Shown here: one piece after another, positions 21,768-63,834 of the stretch
Layout: every line of letters starts with the position of its first letter
How positions within the stretch are numbered: position 1 is the first letter of the stretch
From: Escherichia coli
GTDB lineage: Bacteria > Pseudomonadota > Gammaproteobacteria > Enterobacterales > Enterobacteriaceae
Reading direction: 5' to 3' (one strand)
Length of the DNA: 64,000 bases
NCBI RefSeq assembly: GCF_001677475.2
Contig: NZ_CP015229.1
The notes under the pieces: model-generated
What the model was told of the DNA's origin: nothing
Seen by the model: the letters and a program-made list of their open reading frames with translations, nothing else
The model's database searches: none
Program-made: the position numbers and the translations under genes

Positions 21768-23021
21768 TTATGCGTAAACCGGGTAACGTGCGCAGATGTC
21801 GAGAACTTTACCTTTGATACGCTCGATAACGGCTTCATCATTGATGCTGTCCAGCACGTCACACATCCAGCCAGCCAGTTCTTTCGCTTCTGCTTCTTTG
21901 AAGCCGCGACGCGTAATCGCCGGAGTACCCACGCGAATACCGGAGGTCACAAACGGGCTCTTCGGATCGTTCGGTACGCTGTTTTTGTTGACGGTGATGT
22001 TAGCACGGCCCAGAGCGGCGTCTGCTTCTTTACCGGTCAGGTTTTTATCAACCAGATCAACCAGGAACAGGTGGTTATCAGTGCCGCCGGAAACCACTTT
22101 GTAGCCGCGTTCCAGGAACACTTCTACCATCGCTTTAGCGTTTTTAGCGACCTGCTGCTGGTAAGTTTTGAACTCAGGCTCCATCGCTTCTTTCAGAGCA
22201 ACCGCTTTACCGGCGATTACGTGCATCAAAGGACCGCCCTGACCACCAGGGAAAACGGCAGAGTTCAGTTTTTTGTACAGCTCTTCGCTACCACCTTTCG
22301 CCAGGATCAGACCGCCGCGCGGACCCGCCAGGGTTTTGTGAGTGGTGGTAGTAACAACGTGAGCATGAGGAACTGGGTTCGGGTAGACGCCAGCAGCAAC
22401 CAGGCCCGCAACGTGCGCCATATCAACGAACAGGTAAGCACCGATGCTGTCAGCGATTTCACGCATTTTCGCCCAGTCCACCACGCCGGAATATGCAGAG
22501 AAGCCACCGATAATCATTTTCGGTTTGTGTTCTTTGGCTTGTTTTTCCAGATCGGCGTAGTCGATATGACCGGTAGCATCGATACCGTAAGGAACGATGT
22601 TGTACAGTTTACCGGAGAAGTTAACCGGAGAACCGTGAGTCAGGTGACCGCCATGCGCCAGGTTCATACCCAGAACGGTATCACCTGGTTCCAGCAGCGC
22701 GGTGTAGACCGCAAAGTTAGCCTGGGAGCCGGAGTGCGGCTGGACGTTAGCGTAGTCAGCGCCGAACAGTTCTTTCGCACGATCGATCGCCAGTTGTTCA
22801 ACGATATCAACATACTCGCAACCGCCGTAGTAGCGTTTGCCCGGATAACCTTCAGCATATTTGTTGGTCAGCTGAGAACCCTGCGCCTGCATTACGCGCG
22901 GGCTGGTGTAGTTTTCGGAGGCGATCAGTTCGATGTGCTCTTCCTGACGTACTTTTTCCTGCTCCATAGCCTGCCACAGTTCGGCATCATAATCGGCAAT
23001 GTTCATTTCACGCTTTAACAT
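21768..23021 (-). CDS. glyA: Serine hydroxymethyltransferase
   Basis: ORF trimmed to [12 protein letters not shown]... (417 aa); PLP motif [16 protein letters not shown]. Confidence 0.95.
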
Positions 23022-23139
23022 CCGCATCTCCTGACTCAGCTAACAATAAAATTTTTGGCCTTTATAGGCGGTCCTGTTGGACAACGGCGAACAGTATAAC
23101 CGAATCATTGTGCGATAACAGGTCTTGACAAAGGAATTT

Positions 23140-23155
23140 ACGCAAACGATTACCT
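23140..23155. promoter_or_regulatory. PurR-box-like operator in glyA upstream region
   Basis: ACGCAAACGATTACCT resembles the PurR box ACGCAAACGTTTTCNT. Confidence 0.4.
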
Positions 23156-23299
23156 TCAGGCTGCGCAAGGCTTTGGAGAATAAAGAGCTTGCAACCGGAA
23201 ACGGATTTCTTTTCAGGTTTGTGATGCAAATTTTTCACTTCATCACATTCTTTCTGAAAAACACCAAAGAACCATTTACATTGCAGGGCGATTTTTTAT

Positions 23300-23332
23300 A
23301 AGATGCATTTGAGATACATCAATTAAGATGCA
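23300..23332. promoter_or_regulatory. Putative NsrR operator at the hmp promoter
   Basis: AT-rich imperfect inverted repeat AAGATGCATTT...AAGATGCA overlapping the hmp -10 region. Confidence 0.4.
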
Positions 23333-23348
23333 AAAAAAGGAAGACCAT

Positions 23349-24539
23349 ATGCTTGACGCTCAAACCATCGCTACAGTAAAAGCCACCATCCCTTTACTGG
23401 TGGAAACGGGGCCAAAGTTAACCGCCCATTTCTACGACCGTATGTTTACTCATAACCCAGAACTCAAAGAAATTTTTAACATGAGTAACCAGCGTAATGG
23501 CGATCAACGTGAAGCCCTGTTTAACGCCATTGCCGCCTACGCCAGTAATATTGAAAACCTGCCTGCGCTGCTGCCAGCCGTAGAAAAAATCGCTCAGAAG
23601 CACACCAGCTTCCAGATCAAACCGGAACAGTACAACATCGTCGGTGAACACCTGTTGGCGACCCTGGACGAAATGTTCAGCCCGGGGCAGGAAGTGCTGG
23701 ACGCGTGGGGTAAAGCCTATGGCGTACTGGCTAATGTATTTATCAATCGCGAGGCGGAAATCTATAACGAAAACGCCAGCAAAGCCGGTGGCTGGGAAGG
23801 TACTCGCGATTTCCGCATTGTGGCTAAAACACCGCGCAGCGCGCTTATCACCAGCTTCGAACTGGAGCCGGTCGACGGTGGCGCAGTGGCAGAATACCGT
23901 CCGGGGCAATATCTCGGCGTCTGGCTGAAGCCGGAAGGTTTCCCGCATCAGGAAATTCGTCAGTACTCTTTAACTCGCAAACCGGATGGCAAAGGCTATC
24001 GTATTGCGGTGAAACGCGAAGAGGGTGGGCAGGTATCCAACTGGCTGCACAATCACGCCAATGTTGGCGATGTCGTGAAACTGGTCGCTCCGGCAGGTGA
24101 TTTCTTTATGGCTGTGGCGGATGACACGCCGGTGACGTTAATCTCTGCTGGTGTCGGCCAGACGCCAATGCTGGCAATGCTCGACACACTGGCAAAAGCA
24201 GGCCACACAGCACAAGTGAACTGGTTCCATGCGGCAGAAAATGGCGATGTTCACGCCTTTGCCGATGAAGTTAAGGAACTGGGGCAGTCACTGCCGCGCT
24301 TTACCGCGCACACCTGGTATCGCCAGCCGAGCGAAGCCGATCGCGCTAAAGGTCAGTTTGATAGCGAAGGTCTGATGGATTTGAGCAAACTGGAAGGTAC
24401 GTTCAGCGATCCGACAATGCAGTTCTATCTCTGCGGCCCGGTTGGCTTCATGCAGTTTGCCGCGAAACAATTAGTGGACCTGGGCGTGAAACAGGAAAAC
24501 ATTCATTACGAATGCTTTGGCCCGCATAAGGTGCTGTGA
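23349..24539 (+). CDS. hmp: Flavohaemoglobin (NO dioxygenase)
   Basis: ORF trimmed to [10 protein letters not shown]... (396 aa); globin domain plus FAD/NAD reductase domain. Confidence 0.93.
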
Positions 24540-24583: not shown

Positions 24584-24958
<375 letters not shown>

Positions 24959-24982: not shown

Positions 24983-26317
24983 TCATTCCTTGAAATCGTT
25001 TGCATCCAGCTCGTGTCGGGAAAGCAGTTTATAAAATTCTGTCCGGTTGCGCCCCGCCATTCTCGCCGCGTGGGTGACGTTGCCTTTGGTGATTTGCAGC
25101 AGCTTACGCAAATAATTGAGTTCAAACTGATTACGTGCCTCAACAAAGGTTGGCAGCGCCGTATTTTCACCCTCCAGCGCCTGCTCCACCAGCGCATCAC
25201 TAATCACCGGAGATGAGGTCAGCGCCACGCACTGTTCAATCACGTTGACCAACTGGCGCACATTACCCGGCCAGCTCGCGGTCATCAGGCGTTTCATCGC
25301 ATCGGTAGAGAATGCGCGGACAAACGGTTTATGTCGCTCTGCCGCCTGGCGCAACAGGTGATTTGCCAGTAGCGGAATGTCTTCTGTGCGCTCTGCCAGA
25401 GCCGGAATTTTCAGGCTGACAACGTTGAGGCGGTAATAGAGATCTTCACGGAATTCCCCGCGCGCCATCGCTTTTGGCAGGTCGCGGTGAGTGGCGGAAA
25501 TAATCCGCACGTCGATATCAATATCGCGGTTACTGCCCAGCGGGCGCACTTTACGCTCCTGCAACACGCGCAGCAGTTTGACCTGCAACGGTGTGGGCAT
25601 ATCGCCAATCTCATCGAGAAATAGCGTACCGCCTTCCGCCGCCTGGAATAAACCTTCGCGATTGCTGACAGCACCAGTAAACGCGCCACGCGCATGACCA
25701 AACAGCTCCGACTCCAGCAATTGCTCGGGCAATGCGCCACAGTTAATAGCAATAAATGGTTTGCTGTTGCGCGGGCTGGCGTTGTGGATAGCCTGGGCGA
25801 AAATCTCTTTCCCGGTGCCGCTCTGGCCATTAATCAGCACGCTGACGTCTGATTGCGCCACCAGCCGCGCCTGTTCCAGCAAACGCAGCATCAGCGGGCT
25901 GCGGGTGACAATCGCCTCGCGCCAGCGTTCGTCGGTAGCAGGCGCGGATTGTTCCAGCGCATCGTCAATTGCCTGATATAGCGCGTCTTTATCGACAGGC
26001 TTGGTGAGGAAACTAAAAACGCCCTGCTGTGTTGCAGCAACGGCATCGGGGATAGAACCATGCGCAGTAAGAATAATTACTGGCATTCCAGGCTGCACTT
26101 TCTGGATTTCAGCAAACAGCTGCATACCGTCCATTTCATCCATCCGCAGGTCGCTGATGACTAAATCTACTTTTTCGCGATTCAGTACCCGTAATCCTTC
26201 AGCGCCACTCTCCGCCGTGACCACGCTGTAGCCTTCGCTGGTCAGGCGCAGGCCAAGCAGTTTCAGCAATCCCGGATCGTCATCGACCAATAATAAATGC
26301 GCAGGTTTATGGCTCAT
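24983..26317 (-). CDS. glrR: Sigma54-dependent response regulator GlrR (YfhA/QseF)
   Basis: ORF trimmed to [14 protein letters not shown]... (444 aa); receiver domain, AAA+ sigma54-activator domain with GAFTGA, C-terminal HTH. Confidence 0.9.
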
Positions 26318-28669: not shown

Positions 28670-28853
28670 CAACAAAGCCGGGAATTACCCGGCTTTGTTA
28701 TGGAATAAGGCGGTGCCTAACTCGACGTTTCGCCCGATGGTTGATATAGCTACGCTGATATCAGAAGTTGGACGGCAGGCACCTTGTTGTGCGTCATTCG
28801 AATTTTATGTAGCACGTCCCGAAGGGGCTGACATAAGTCGGTGAATGAGCCAC
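28670..28853 (-). ncRNA. glmY: GlmY small RNA
   Basis: Minus-strand read AGUGGCUCAUUCACCGACUUAUGUCAGCCCCUUCGGGACGUGC... ending in terminator hairpin GCCGGGUAAUUCCCGGC plus U-tract; recognised as GlmY. Confidence 0.8.
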
Positions 28854-28865
28854 TGCTTACTATTA

Positions 28866-33152: not shown

Positions 33153-33168
33153 ACGAAACCGTTTGCGT
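33153..33168. promoter_or_regulatory. PurR box upstream of purL
   Basis: ACGAAACCGTTTGCGT (reverse complement ACGCAAACGGTTTCGT) is a near-perfect 16-bp PurR palindrome. Confidence 0.55.
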
Positions 33169-38052: not shown

Positions 38053-38128
38053 CGTTGGAATCGTGTGCTGCACAAAATTAAAGTTGTAAAGTGAAAACCC
38101 CCGTTCCTTACCAGTTCGGGGGTTTTAC
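38053..38128 (+). ncRNA. ohsC: Candidate OhsC antisense sRNA (antitoxin of shoB)
   Basis: Plus-strand TTGGAATCGTGTGCTGCAC (38055-38073) matches plus-strand 37806-37824 in the shoB 5' leader at 18 of 19 positions, so a plus-strand transcript would base-pair with the minus-strand shoB mRNA; CATAAT -10-like hexamer at 38041-38046; hairpin at 38094-38126. Boundaries inferred. Confidence 0.45.
38094..38126. terminator. Bidirectional terminator hairpin (acpS operon end and candidate ohsC end)
   Basis: AAAACCCCCG-loop-CGGGGGTTTT with A-tract and T-tract flanks. Confidence 0.6.
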
Positions 38129-38151
38129 TTTATAAAGAGAACGGTATTTTT

Positions 38152-40134: not shown

Positions 40135-41747
<1,613 letters not shown>

Positions 41748-41945
41748 TCAGCACACGAAACAGACCTGATATACATGGCTCTGCTAACTGCTTCGCTGCA
41801 GTTTCAGTTTAGCGGTATATGGGGACCAACGCTGTTTCGTGTGCCGTGGCAACCTGGAGGTGCCAACCTTAAACTTCGGGGGAATATTCTATACACAACG
41901 ACGGGGGATGTCGTTAGCCACGGGAGATTTATCTCATAAATAATT

Positions 41946-42978: not shown

Positions 42979-44778
<1,800 letters not shown>

Positions 44779-44975
44779 AAAGTATGATTATTGTGCCTTA
44801 ATGCCCGGTTAACCAGGCTTTTAGAAGTCGCTGTTCTGAGCTTAACGTCTGTATTAATAGAAACGCCGCATTCTACACTACAACATTGAGGCGAGGAAAT
44901 GTTCATACCGTATGGATTGTGGTATCTGGAAACGTCCTCGCATTTGTTATGCAAAATGCAACAAAGCCAGTGAAA

Positions 44976-45455
44976 TCACTGGCTCGCGTCTTCCGAAGAT
45001 GTTTCAAATCGCACAAGGCCAGGCGGCAATGCCACGCTTAAGATGATCGGTTGCCATTCAGACCGGGCAGCAAACTTTCGAGAGCAGCCACGTGCAATCA
45101 GGAATCCACCAACGCCACCGAGAATCGCACCGCATAATGCTGCAATATCTGAAGCAAAGAGTAGCTGAAATAGTGAAGCGATGAGGAATAGTCCCACCAA
45201 CGGCGACATATAAACCAGTAATGCGGAGCTAAGCAGGCTGCCTTCGGCGATTCCTAATTCTACTTTTTGCCCCGGCACTAACGGCTCATCACAGGGTACG
45301 ACAATGGTATGCGTGGTTTGCGGGCCAAGTTTATTCAACACGCGGCTACCGCAACCGGCGCGTGAAGCGCAGCTGCTGCATGAGGCTTTAACATCACAAC
45401 TGACCAGCGCCTGCCCGTTTTGCCAGGAGACGACGGTAGCCCACTCTTTGATCAT
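44976..45455 (-). CDS. rseC: SoxR-reducing system protein RseC
   Basis: 159 aa. Confidence 0.9.
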   Translation of the reverse strand: MIKEWATVVSWQNGQALVSCDVKASCSSCASRAGCGSRVLNKLGPQTTHTIVVPCDEPLVPGQKVELGIAEGSLLSSALLVYMSPLVGLFLIASLFQLLFASDIAALCGAILGGVGGFLIARGCSRKFAARSEWQPIILSVALPPGLVRFETSSEDASQ

Positions 45456-46408
45456 TGCGCTGCCCCGAACTTAATATTCTCGGCAATGCGTTTCGCCGTT
45501 TGCGGCGGCAGTTCACCGACAATGGTGATTTCGGCGTTATCACGTACGCTTGTACTGACGGTTCTGCGTCCGGTGCGCAACATCTGATCGGTGCTCGATG
45601 GCGTAGCGCGGTTAACGTTTACCGAGAAGCTGAATAATCCGTCGGAATAGAGACGTGATTCGATAGGCATGTTGTCCATCGTCGGTAGCGGACGTCGACT
45701 ACTGGAAACTTCGCTAAAACCCTGTGGCAACCAGGTTGGCGTCCAGCTGAATTTAGCTTTTTCACCTACAGGAACAGAAAGCAACGGCGGCAAATTTGCC
45801 TTCGCCAGCGTCTGCATACTGCTGCTGATATCCTGATTGACGTTAAAAGCAATCACGCGAAATTGTTCCAGCGTTTCACCATCGCGATCAAGGAGATCAA
45901 CCCTCATCGGTAATTTCGATTCAGTGTCCATCCACACGATGTAGCTGTAGCGTGTACCATCTCGGGCAACCACGCGAATGACTTCGCAAAGACGATCAGC
46001 AATACGCGTGCGCCCGACGGAGATAAAGTCGTAGTAAGGAGAAAGGCGTTTGAAATCGGTATAGATGAGCGATGGCAGAGAATCAACAATGTAATCGCCA
46101 TTAAGCGTGAACGGTTCAAGTCCCGGTTCAAAATAGCTGATTTCATTGCCGCGCTGTACCACTTCCCGGCGCGGGCCATCCATTTGCAACAATTGTGCAA
46201 GAGGACGGTTATCGAGGCGTGCATGTCGATAACGCAGAGACTCAACACCCTGTTTATTGATGCTGATGAATGACAGCTCGTAATTCAGTGACTGACTGGC
46301 CAGGTTCATCTGCTGTAATAACGCCCCGGACGCGGGAGTGGCCGAGGCGTTAGCAGAGAATAACAGGCTACCTGTCACTAATGACATGGCAAACCAAAGT
46401 TGCTTCAT
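45452..46408 (-). CDS. rseB: Sigma-E regulatory protein RseB
   Basis: 318 aa with signal peptide. Confidence 0.92.
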   Translation of the reverse strand: MKQLWFAMSLVTGSLLFSANASATPASGALLQQMNLASQSLNYELSFISINKQGVESLRYRHARLDNRPLAQLLQMDGPRREVVQRGNEISYFEPGLEPFTLNGDYIVDSLPSLIYTDFKRLSPYYDFISVGRTRIADRLCEVIRVVARDGTRYSYIVWMDTESKLPMRVDLLDRDGETLEQFRVIAFNVNQDISSSMQTLAKANLPPLLSVPVGEKAKFSWTPTWLPQGFSEVSSSRRPLPTMDNMPIESRLYSDGLFSFSVNVNRATPSSTDQMLRTGRRTVSTSVRDNAEITIVGELPPQTAKRIAENIKFGAAQ

Positions 46409-53542: not shown

Positions 53543-53926
53543 TTACAGGCTTTCAGTAAAGGTACGAGCGATAACGTCGCGCTGCTGTTCCGGAGTCAGA
53601 GAGTTAAAGCGAACTGCATAACCGGATACACGGATGGTCAGCTGCGGATATTTTTCCGGATGCTTAACTGCATCTTCCAGAGTTTCACGACGCAGAACGT
53701 TTACGTTCAGGTGTTGACCACCTTCAACGCGAACTTCTGGTTTCACTTCTACTGGAACTTCACGGTACTCAATGTCACCCAGTTTGCTTACTGCAACCAC
53801 TTCGTCTTCTGCAAAACCTGCTTTCGCAACGATGCAACGCGCTTCGCCTTTTTCGCTGTCCAGCAGCCAGAAAGAGTTCAGCAGATCGTCGTTAGCGGCT
53901 TTAGTAATCTGGATACCTGTAATCAT
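53543..53926 (-). CDS. grcA: Autonomous glycyl radical cofactor GrcA (YfiD)
   Basis: ORF trimmed to [14 protein letters not shown]... (127 aa); C-terminal glycyl-radical motif RVSGYAV. Confidence 0.92.
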
Positions 53927-54033: not shown

Positions 54034-54047
54034 TTGATTTAAATCAA
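54034..54047. promoter_or_regulatory. FNR binding site in the grcA promoter
   Basis: TTGAT-TTAA-ATCAA, a perfect match to the FNR consensus TTGAT-N4-ATCAA. Confidence 0.65.
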
Positions 54048-54230
54048 TAAAAACCACACATCAAGTATGGTCGCAAATGGATTTTATTGTTTTACATCAA
54101 CTTATGCAGGTGTGAATTTTTACCAATTTACATTTTTTTGCACTCGTTTAAGTCTAAAAAATGAGCATGATTTTGTTCTGTAGAAAGAAGCAGTTAAGCT
54201 AGGCGGATTGAAGATTCGCGGGAGAGCGAG

Positions 54231-63714: not shown

Positions 63715-63834
63715 ATGCCTGGCAGTTCCCTACTCTCGCATGGGGAGACCCCACACTACCATCGGCGCTACGGCGTTTCACTTCTGAGTTCGGCATGGGG
63801 TCAGGTGGGACCACCGCGCTACGGCCGCCAGGCA
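63715..63834 (-). rRNA. rrfG: 5S ribosomal RNA
   Basis: Minus-strand read UGCCUGGCGGCCGUAGCGCGGUGGUCCCACCUGACCCCAUGCCGAACUCAGAAGUGAAACGCCGUAGCGCCGAUGGUAGUGUGGGGUCUCCCCAUGCGAGAGUAGGGAACUGCCAGGCAU is the 120-nt E. coli 5S sequence; operon identity (rrnG) inferred from kgtP adjacency. Confidence 0.9.

Follow-up and report, generated by a model that had tools for sequence, protein, structure and literature searches.

The genes glyA and hmp stand back to back in this stretch of Escherichia coli DNA, and the question they raise is how one short spacer serves both: which proteins would occupy it, and whether its two promoters are controlled separately, in opposition or through a shared input. glyA, which encodes serine hydroxymethyltransferase, occupies 21768-23021 on the minus strand (417 amino acids plus stop; ORF list, NCBIfam NF000586 at 678 bits and the homologous RefSeq locus), and hmp, named hmpA in RefSeq and encoding the NO-inducible flavohaemoglobin, occupies 23349-24539 on the plus strand (396 amino acids plus stop; NCBIfam NF009805 at 629 bits). 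glyA begins with the minus-strand codon 23021-23019 and hmp with the plus-strand ATG at 23349, and therefore the spacer between the divergent start codons, as read from the sequence and the ORF list, is exactly 23022-23348, or 327 bp; the initial annotation had placed a divergent glyA-hmp control region of this length here, and its coordinates are exact and both of its gene identities hold by NCBIfam and RefSeq. The spacer has a G+C content of 39% and occurs as a single copy at at least 95% identity in 5425 of 5426 complete E. coli genomes; in one E. coli RefSeq genome the gene order is yphH, glyA, hmpA, glnB, glrR, qseG, qseE/glrK and purL. Our analysis leads us to conclude that the region is almost certainly the canonical glyA-hmp divergent control DNA of E. 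coli, made up of two back-to-back sigma-70 promoters, each with its own repressor operator. Since each element matches a published E. coli site exactly, the region is, as judged by sequence, already known, and nothing in its identity appears to be new.

On the glyA side, the initial annotation had described a PurR-like half-palindrome; the assignment to PurR stands, whereas the word "half" does not, as the element is a complete 16-bp operator. This box, ACGCAAACGATTACCT at 23140-23155 (AGGTAATCGTTTGCGT on the glyA strand, the minus strand), matches the 16-bp imperfect palindrome ACGNAAACGTTTGCNT with the central CG present. It lies upstream of the predicted glyA -35 hexamer, ending 9 nt from it, and is 119 nt away from the glyA ATG. 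It is the same 16 nt as the PurR operator of glyA in E. coli K-12, with the same neighbouring -35, and so is the same element in another strain with no difference between them; the K-12 operator is the one reportedly described by Steiert in 1990 and 1992. A matrix built from the 27 other ChIP-chip motifs of Cho 2011 (PMC3159470, Table 1), with glyA left out, was run over both strands of the window, by which we mean the whole 64-kb stretch of DNA analysed here. With this glyA-left-out matrix the score of the box is 21.6 out of a possible 25.5 bits (p 2.8e-8), the second highest in the window; about 0.0036 matches that good are expected per window, and 1.8e-5 per spacer under a 39% G+C null. The matrix scan, which the initial annotation had named as the check on its reading, thus sets the box above the window background: the ranking runs from the purL operator (22.9 bits) through the glyA box (21.6 bits) to a third-best site at 12.5 bits. 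The top-scoring purL element, ACGAAACCGTTTGCGT at 33153-33168, lies about 100 nt upstream of purL, equals the purL motif of Cho 2011 and serves as the internal positive control of the scan.

The evidence for PurR also extends to published occupancy and to evolutionary retention. ACGCAAACGATTACCT is the exact reverse complement of AGGTAATCGTTTGCGT, the glyA motif of the ChIP-chip study, in which the log2 ratio at glyA was 2.08 with adenine and 1.13 without (Cho 2011, PMC3159470, Table 1 for the motif); an arm of the AGGTAA type is frequent among the genuine PurR sites of the same table. Outside the purine and pyrimidine pathways, the glyA site is the sole PurR site with confirmed evidence (PMC3548332). 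For comparison among species, a genome scan for Hmp gave 80 Enterobacteriaceae loci, 78 of them with enough upstream DNA, and an alignment of 79 distinct spacers. The divergent glyA-hmp layout is present in all 78 loci, with spacers of 272-346 bp, and 75 of the 78 orthologous spacers retain a PurR match scoring 15 bits or more, at a constant distance of 94-120 nt from the glyA ATG. The left half of the box, ACGCAAACG, is identical in 78 of the 79 distinct spacers (identity 1.00). Since the spacer is conserved overall, we used retention of matrix score in orthologous spacers as the test. Conservation as a stand-alone test was set aside for its weak discrimination: the mean over the whole spacer is 0.74, and the PurR box and the NsrR 23-mer described below fall only in the top 12.5% and the top 31%, respectively, of windows of the same length. 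Elsewhere in the window, a weak PurR-like box of 12.3 bits (TTGAAATCGTTTGCAT, 24990-25005) lies 68-83 nt upstream of the start of glnB (24584-24922, minus strand), a published target of PurR that went undetected in the ChIP-chip study.

On the hmp side, the element in question is an NsrR operator of 11-1-11 form, AAGATGCATTT-G-AGATACATCAA, at 23300-23322, assigned by matrix score, by identity to a ChIP-seq-supported site and by conservation. The symmetrised 23-mer matrix was made from 25 of the 11-1-11 sites of Mehta 2015 (PMC5320621, Table 4), omitting the hmp site and one duplicate. Scored with it, the 23-mer AAGATGCATTTGAGATACATCAA reaches 17.8 bits, the top score in the window, where about 0.027 matches at that level are expected (1.9e-3 per spacer), and the leave-one-out scores of the remaining table entries (8.1-31.7 bits) bracket this value. 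Read on the opposite strand, 23300-23322 is letter for letter the published hmp site TTGATGTATCTCAAATGCATCTT, which carries a ChIP-seq peak, and an NsrR peak between glyA and hmp was found in strain CFT073 (Mehta 2015, PMC5320621). The same work reports two AAGATGCA half-sites upstream of hmp, 44 and 19 nt from its ATG (PMC5320621), positions that coincide with 23300-23310 and 23325-23335. The element is thus the E. coli hmp operator of Mehta 2015, with the same 23 nt, the same half-site positions and no difference. The two operators sit at the places where the initial annotation had quoted its motifs, ACGCAAACGATTACCT being located at 23140-23155 and its 33-nt string AAGATGCATTTGAGATACATCAATTAAGATGCA at 23300-23332. 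The E. coli hmp NsrR operator is reportedly also described by Bodenmiller and Spiro in 2006 and by Partridge in 2009.

The two arms of this operator differ greatly in quality. The left arm AAGATGCATTT is a perfect half-site, scoring 15.88 of 15.9 bits and ranking first among about 128,000 positions, whereas the right arm AGATACATCAA reaches no more than 2.3 bits, which taken alone is at chance level; it is degenerate by comparison with ytfE, the best NsrR site (AAGATGCATTTAAAATGCATCTT). The whole resembles the 11-1-11 form AAGATGCATTT-N-AAATGCATCTT, but its symmetry is weak, with agreement at 7 of 11 positions, and a repeat search detected no inverted repeat at seed 6 in the hmp element, only a direct one. 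Because the E. coli palindrome matches at only 7 of 11 positions and no inverted repeat was detected, the operator call rests on the matrix and not on symmetry. The initial annotation had seen an AT-rich imperfect inverted repeat overlapping the hmp -10 region; the site itself is real, top of the window by the matrix scan that the annotation had proposed and equal to the published operator, while the description as an inverted repeat fits poorly in E. coli. The overlap with the -10 is borne out by our promoter scan and by the hexamers of Shimada 2014: the first base of the operator, 23300, falls within the predicted -10 (23297-23304), and the operator extends over the predicted transcription start.

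None of the 78 orthologous spacers lacks an NsrR site of at least 17.8 bits; the sites lie 40-61 nt ahead of the hmp ATG and have a median score of 26.8 bits, in agreement with the conservation upstream of hmp in Rodionov 2005. The E. coli score is the lowest among the 78 spacers, tied with three other Escherichia loci; the homologous site exceeds that of E. coli in 75 of the 78 other Enterobacteriaceae spacers (median 26.8 versus 17.8 bits). Identity to the base in the window, over the 79 distinct spacers, is 0.96 for the left arm and 0.76 for the right arm, against 0.66 for the rest of the spacer. In other genera the site takes the form AAGATGCATTT-A-AAATACATC(A/T)T, and most Enterobacteriaceae carry AAGATGCATTT-A-AAATACATCTT. 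A variant architecture was seen in the columns aligned to 23300-23322 of one distant orthologous spacer (L064, assigned by matching its alignment row to its printed NsrR site), where a local duplication, AAGATGCATTAAAAGATGCATATTAAATGCATCAT, places two copies of the left arm before a good right arm.

The right arm is weak because it doubles as an FNR box, TTGAGATACATCAA (TTGAG-N4-ATCAA) at 23309-23322, which is nested in it and differs from TTGAT-N4-ATCAA by one mismatch; FNR had no part in the reading of the AT-rich repeat by the initial annotation. The box lies downstream of the -10, as does the known FNR site on the hmp promoter, a position consistent with repression by promoter occlusion; that site, attributed to Poole 1996 and Cruz-Ramos 2002, is said to be centred at +5.5. 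By itself the pattern is weak evidence, with 5 matches in the window against 2.27 expected, a marginal excess, although three of the five lie at promoters that we take to be FNR-regulated, namely hmp and two matches upstream of grcA/yfiD. The latter two, TTGATTTAAATCAA (perfect) at 54034-54047 and TTGTTTTACATCAA at 54087-54100, are 53 bp apart, upstream of a grcA/yfiD ATG at 53926 on the minus strand, and are presumably the tandem yfiD FNR sites. An FNR box with at most one mismatch is present in only 10 of the 78 orthologous spacers, those of Escherichia and some Citrobacter, so that the box is not generally conserved; the limited conservation of the FNR site agrees with Rodionov 2005. The box is best seen as a lineage-specific overlay that would have been added to an older operator, and its poor conservation would be no evidence against a functional site in E. 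coli.

A further NsrR-like half-site, AAGATGCAAAA at 23325-23335 on the plus strand, is putative. It represents the second copy of the direct repeat TAAGATGCA, found by the repeat search at 23299-23307 and 23324-23332 with a spacing of 25 nt, and it corresponds to a possible NsrR motif in Mehta 2015 (PMC5320621). With 7.7 bits, a score for which about 1.5 matches are expected per spacer, and an identity of 0.45, it occurs in Escherichia only. We rejected this third AAGATGCA copy as a significant NsrR site, as its matrix score is at chance level and half-sites of at least 7 bits lie downstream in 23 of 79 spacers. Scores of the right arm and of the downstream half-site are negatively related (Spearman -0.32, p 0.005), a figure that ignores phylogeny and is not trustworthy. 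One can picture, tentatively and with rather little confidence, that Escherichia remodelled an ancestral near-perfect palindrome, AAGATGCATTT-A-AAATACATCTT, turning its right arm into an FNR box while the extra TAAGATGCA half-site would compensate as a second NsrR anchor. The trade-off and the overlap are partly in the literature, in Rodionov 2005 for the conservation of the FNR site and in Mehta 2015 (PMC5320621) for the second motif. What is mildly fresh is the comparative point that Escherichia appears to have accepted a poorer NsrR site in exchange for an FNR overlay, which illustrates on a small scale how a composite operator evolves.

Between the two promoters lie two tandem candidate MetR sites, 22 nt apart: GGATTTCTTTTCA at 23203-23215, site 2 on the glyA side, with two mismatches to TGAA-N5-TTCA and an identity of 0.96, and TGCAAATTTTTCA at 23225-23237, site 1 on the hmp side, with one mismatch and an identity of 0.87. 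In the most distant orthologue the columns of site 1 read ATGAAGAAAATTCAT, a perfect ATGAA-N5-TTCAT. Site 1 came from a pattern search and site 2 from reading the sequence, and the pattern is unenriched in the window (22 found against 27.5 expected); the placement of both sites, and their probable role as an element shared by glyA and hmp at 23203-23237, is therefore one that we infer from conservation and the literature. These candidates resemble the tandem sites of the glyA-hmp literature in being two conserved TGAA-N5-TTCA-like sites, 22 nt apart, between the promoters. Work by Lorenz and Stauffer in 1995 and 1996 and by Membrillo-Hernandez in 1998 is said to have described these sites in the glyA-hmp region. 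The presence of two tandem MetR sites between the divergent genes has been reported, with MetR plus homocysteine activating glyA and repressing hmp (PMC5002191), and comparative genomics places both genes in the MetR regulon of Enterobacteriales (PMC4239095). The suggestion of opposed purine and nitrosative-stress inputs on the two genes goes too far: PurR and NsrR are independent, at their own promoters about 160 bp apart, and it is MetR that is reported to act on both genes.

The promoters frame these operators. That of glyA, predicted by a consensus scan at 23104-23131 on the minus strand, consists of a -35 TTGTCA (23131-23126), a 16-nt spacer and a -10 AATGAT (23109-23104), with conservation of 0.98 for the -35 hexamer and 0.71 for the -10; transcription would start at about 23096-23097. 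That of hmp, a sigma-70 promoter at 23275-23304 on the plus strand, has a -35 TTTACA at 23275-23280 and a -10 at 23297-23304 that can be read as TATAAG or TAAGAT: the consensus scan gives TTTACA-18-TAAGAT with the -10 at 23299-23304, and Shimada 2014 gives TTTACA-16-TATAAG. Over the 79 distinct spacers the hmp -35 is invariant (1.00), the -10 region scores 0.99 and TATAAGATGCATT is nearly invariant. Positions given relative to the promoters, like the transcription starts of both genes, are predicted ones.

Taken together, these elements suggest how the region would work. PurR, with hypoxanthine or guanine as corepressor, would bind 23140-23155 near the glyA -35 and lower glyA transcription, so that its control of glyA would couple the supply of one-carbon units and glycine to purine sufficiency. 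NsrR with an intact iron-sulfur cluster would sit on 23300-23322, occluding the hmp -10 and the predicted start and so blocking RNA polymerase; nitric oxide would damage the cluster, NsrR would leave the DNA and hmp would be switched on. Release of NsrR by reaction of NO with its iron-sulfur cluster is described in PMC6950321 and PMC5320621. In Escherichia, divergence of the NsrR right arm to the FNR box at 23309-23322 would add anaerobic repression of hmp, and the tandem MetR sites at 23203-23237 would serve both genes, MetR with homocysteine activating glyA and repressing hmp. Protein occupancy at both operators would follow from published ChIP data on E. coli K-12 and CFT073, whose sequences are identical to those here, and the direction of each regulatory effect is taken from the literature.

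The contribution of FNR and of MetR to the control of hmp invites other readings of the same DNA. If 23300-23322 were mainly an FNR operator, oxygen and NO would be sensed through the iron-sulfur cluster of FNR and the resemblance to an NsrR site would be secondary. TTGAGATACATCAA is indeed a single mismatch from the FNR consensus, the scan that found it also recovers both grcA/yfiD boxes, which makes the pattern informative in this window, and repression of hmp by FNR has been published (Poole 1996 and Cruz-Ramos 2002, both cited in PMC2884951, which also reports regulation of hmp by FNR and MetR). However, the FNR consensus at up to one mismatch is found in 10 of 78 spacers and the NsrR site in 78 of 78, the same point being made in Rodionov 2005, and the left arm is a perfect NsrR half-site under an NsrR ChIP-seq peak. 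We consider an operator mainly for FNR very unlikely, and the FNR overlay is best seen as already part of the main explanation. NO might alternatively control hmp chiefly through MetR, nitrosation depleting homocysteine and thereby changing MetR binding at 23203-23237, with NsrR in a minor role. The conserved tandem sites lie at a plausible place for this, about 75-105 nt upstream of the hmp start, hmp belongs to the Enterobacteriales MetR regulon by comparative genomics (PMC4239095), and the mechanism itself was proposed by Membrillo-Hernandez 1998, as cited in PMC2884951 and PMC6950321. Later work nevertheless describes NsrR as a major mechanism and as strongly repressing hmp (PMC6950321 and the Fig. 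8 legend of PMC2884951), the title of Pullan 2007, as listed in PMC2884951, speaks of unaltered methionine biosynthesis under NO in chemostats, and the literature already contains results of the kind expected if NO induction survives deletion of metR and is lost on deletion of nsrR. Control chiefly through MetR is very improbable.

A more basic doubt is whether these motifs are chance matches in an AT-rich spacer, with no regulatory role. At 39% G+C such matches arise easily, as the third half-site (7.7 bits) and the right arm taken alone (2.3 bits), both at chance level, illustrate, and the MetR pattern is no more frequent in the window than expected. Against chance, however, the two operators would be expected only 1.8e-5 (PurR, 21.6 bits) and 1.9e-3 (NsrR, 17.8 bits) times per spacer, they are kept at the same relative position across genera in 75 of 78 and 78 of 78 spacers, and both coincide with published ChIP peaks. 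Matrix scores, expectations and site retention already refute the idea of chance, to which we give next to no credence, and no result of the analysis speaks against the reading of two repressor operators, one at each promoter.

As understood here, the region links one-carbon and purine metabolism (glyA) to nitric-oxide defence (hmp) through the shared MetR/homocysteine input, a link documented by publications of the 1990s and 2000s. The value of the exercise lies in calibration: a reading of the raw sequence recognised two real operators, matrices with the site in question left out recovered both cleanly, and the same scans also picked up, elsewhere in the window, the PurR operator of purL and the boxes in front of grcA.

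Other kinds of element were also considered. A permissive Rfam scan of 22900-23500 returned only a meaningless mir-67 match (17.4 bits against a gathering score of 53), and an RNA element in the spacer was rejected. A small gene was set aside on the evidence of ORFs and spacer length, the spacer containing only mechanical ORFs of 42-58 amino acids with TTG or GTG starts and varying in length from 272 to 346 bp among genera. A search by gene name in the tables of Adams 2021, which list 3' ends only, retrieved no 3' end for the spacer. Above the gathering score, Rfam matches in the window are GlmY sRNA (28707-28854, minus strand), ohsC (38054-38131, plus), rncO (41663-41877, minus), AsrC, the antisense of rseC (44660-45491, plus), and 5S rRNA (63717-63832, minus), as expected in this chromosomal region of E. 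coli.

The remaining observations concern leaders and conserved blocks within the spacer. The glyA 5' leader with its Shine-Dalgarno sequence (AGGAG on the glyA strand; 23022-23045, minus strand) has an identity of 0.98 over the 79 distinct spacers, and conservation well beyond AGGAG hints at an extra constraint on the mRNA. The hmp Shine-Dalgarno sequence, read as AAGGAAG at 23338-23344 on the plus strand, lies 5-11 nt before the ATG (identity 0.78). Shimada 2014 lists a constitutive promoter in the glyA direction, TTGATG-16-TATAAA; this string is found at 23295-23322 on the minus strand, over the hmp promoter and NsrR site and about 270 nt upstream of glyA, and so differs from the main glyA promoter near 23104-23131. 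In the interval from the PurR box to the MetR sites there is a conserved block, CAAGGCTTTGG at 23166-23176, with an identity of about 0.8-1.0. Within the spacer between the hmp -35 and -10, a block CAGGG(G/T)TA is conserved at 23283-23291 and in the same columns of orthologous spacers. In most genera its opposite strand is TACCCCT or TAACCCT, similar to a NarL/NarP heptamer, and in this E. coli a degenerate TCGCCCT; NarP control of hmp in enterobacteria was predicted by Rodionov 2005.
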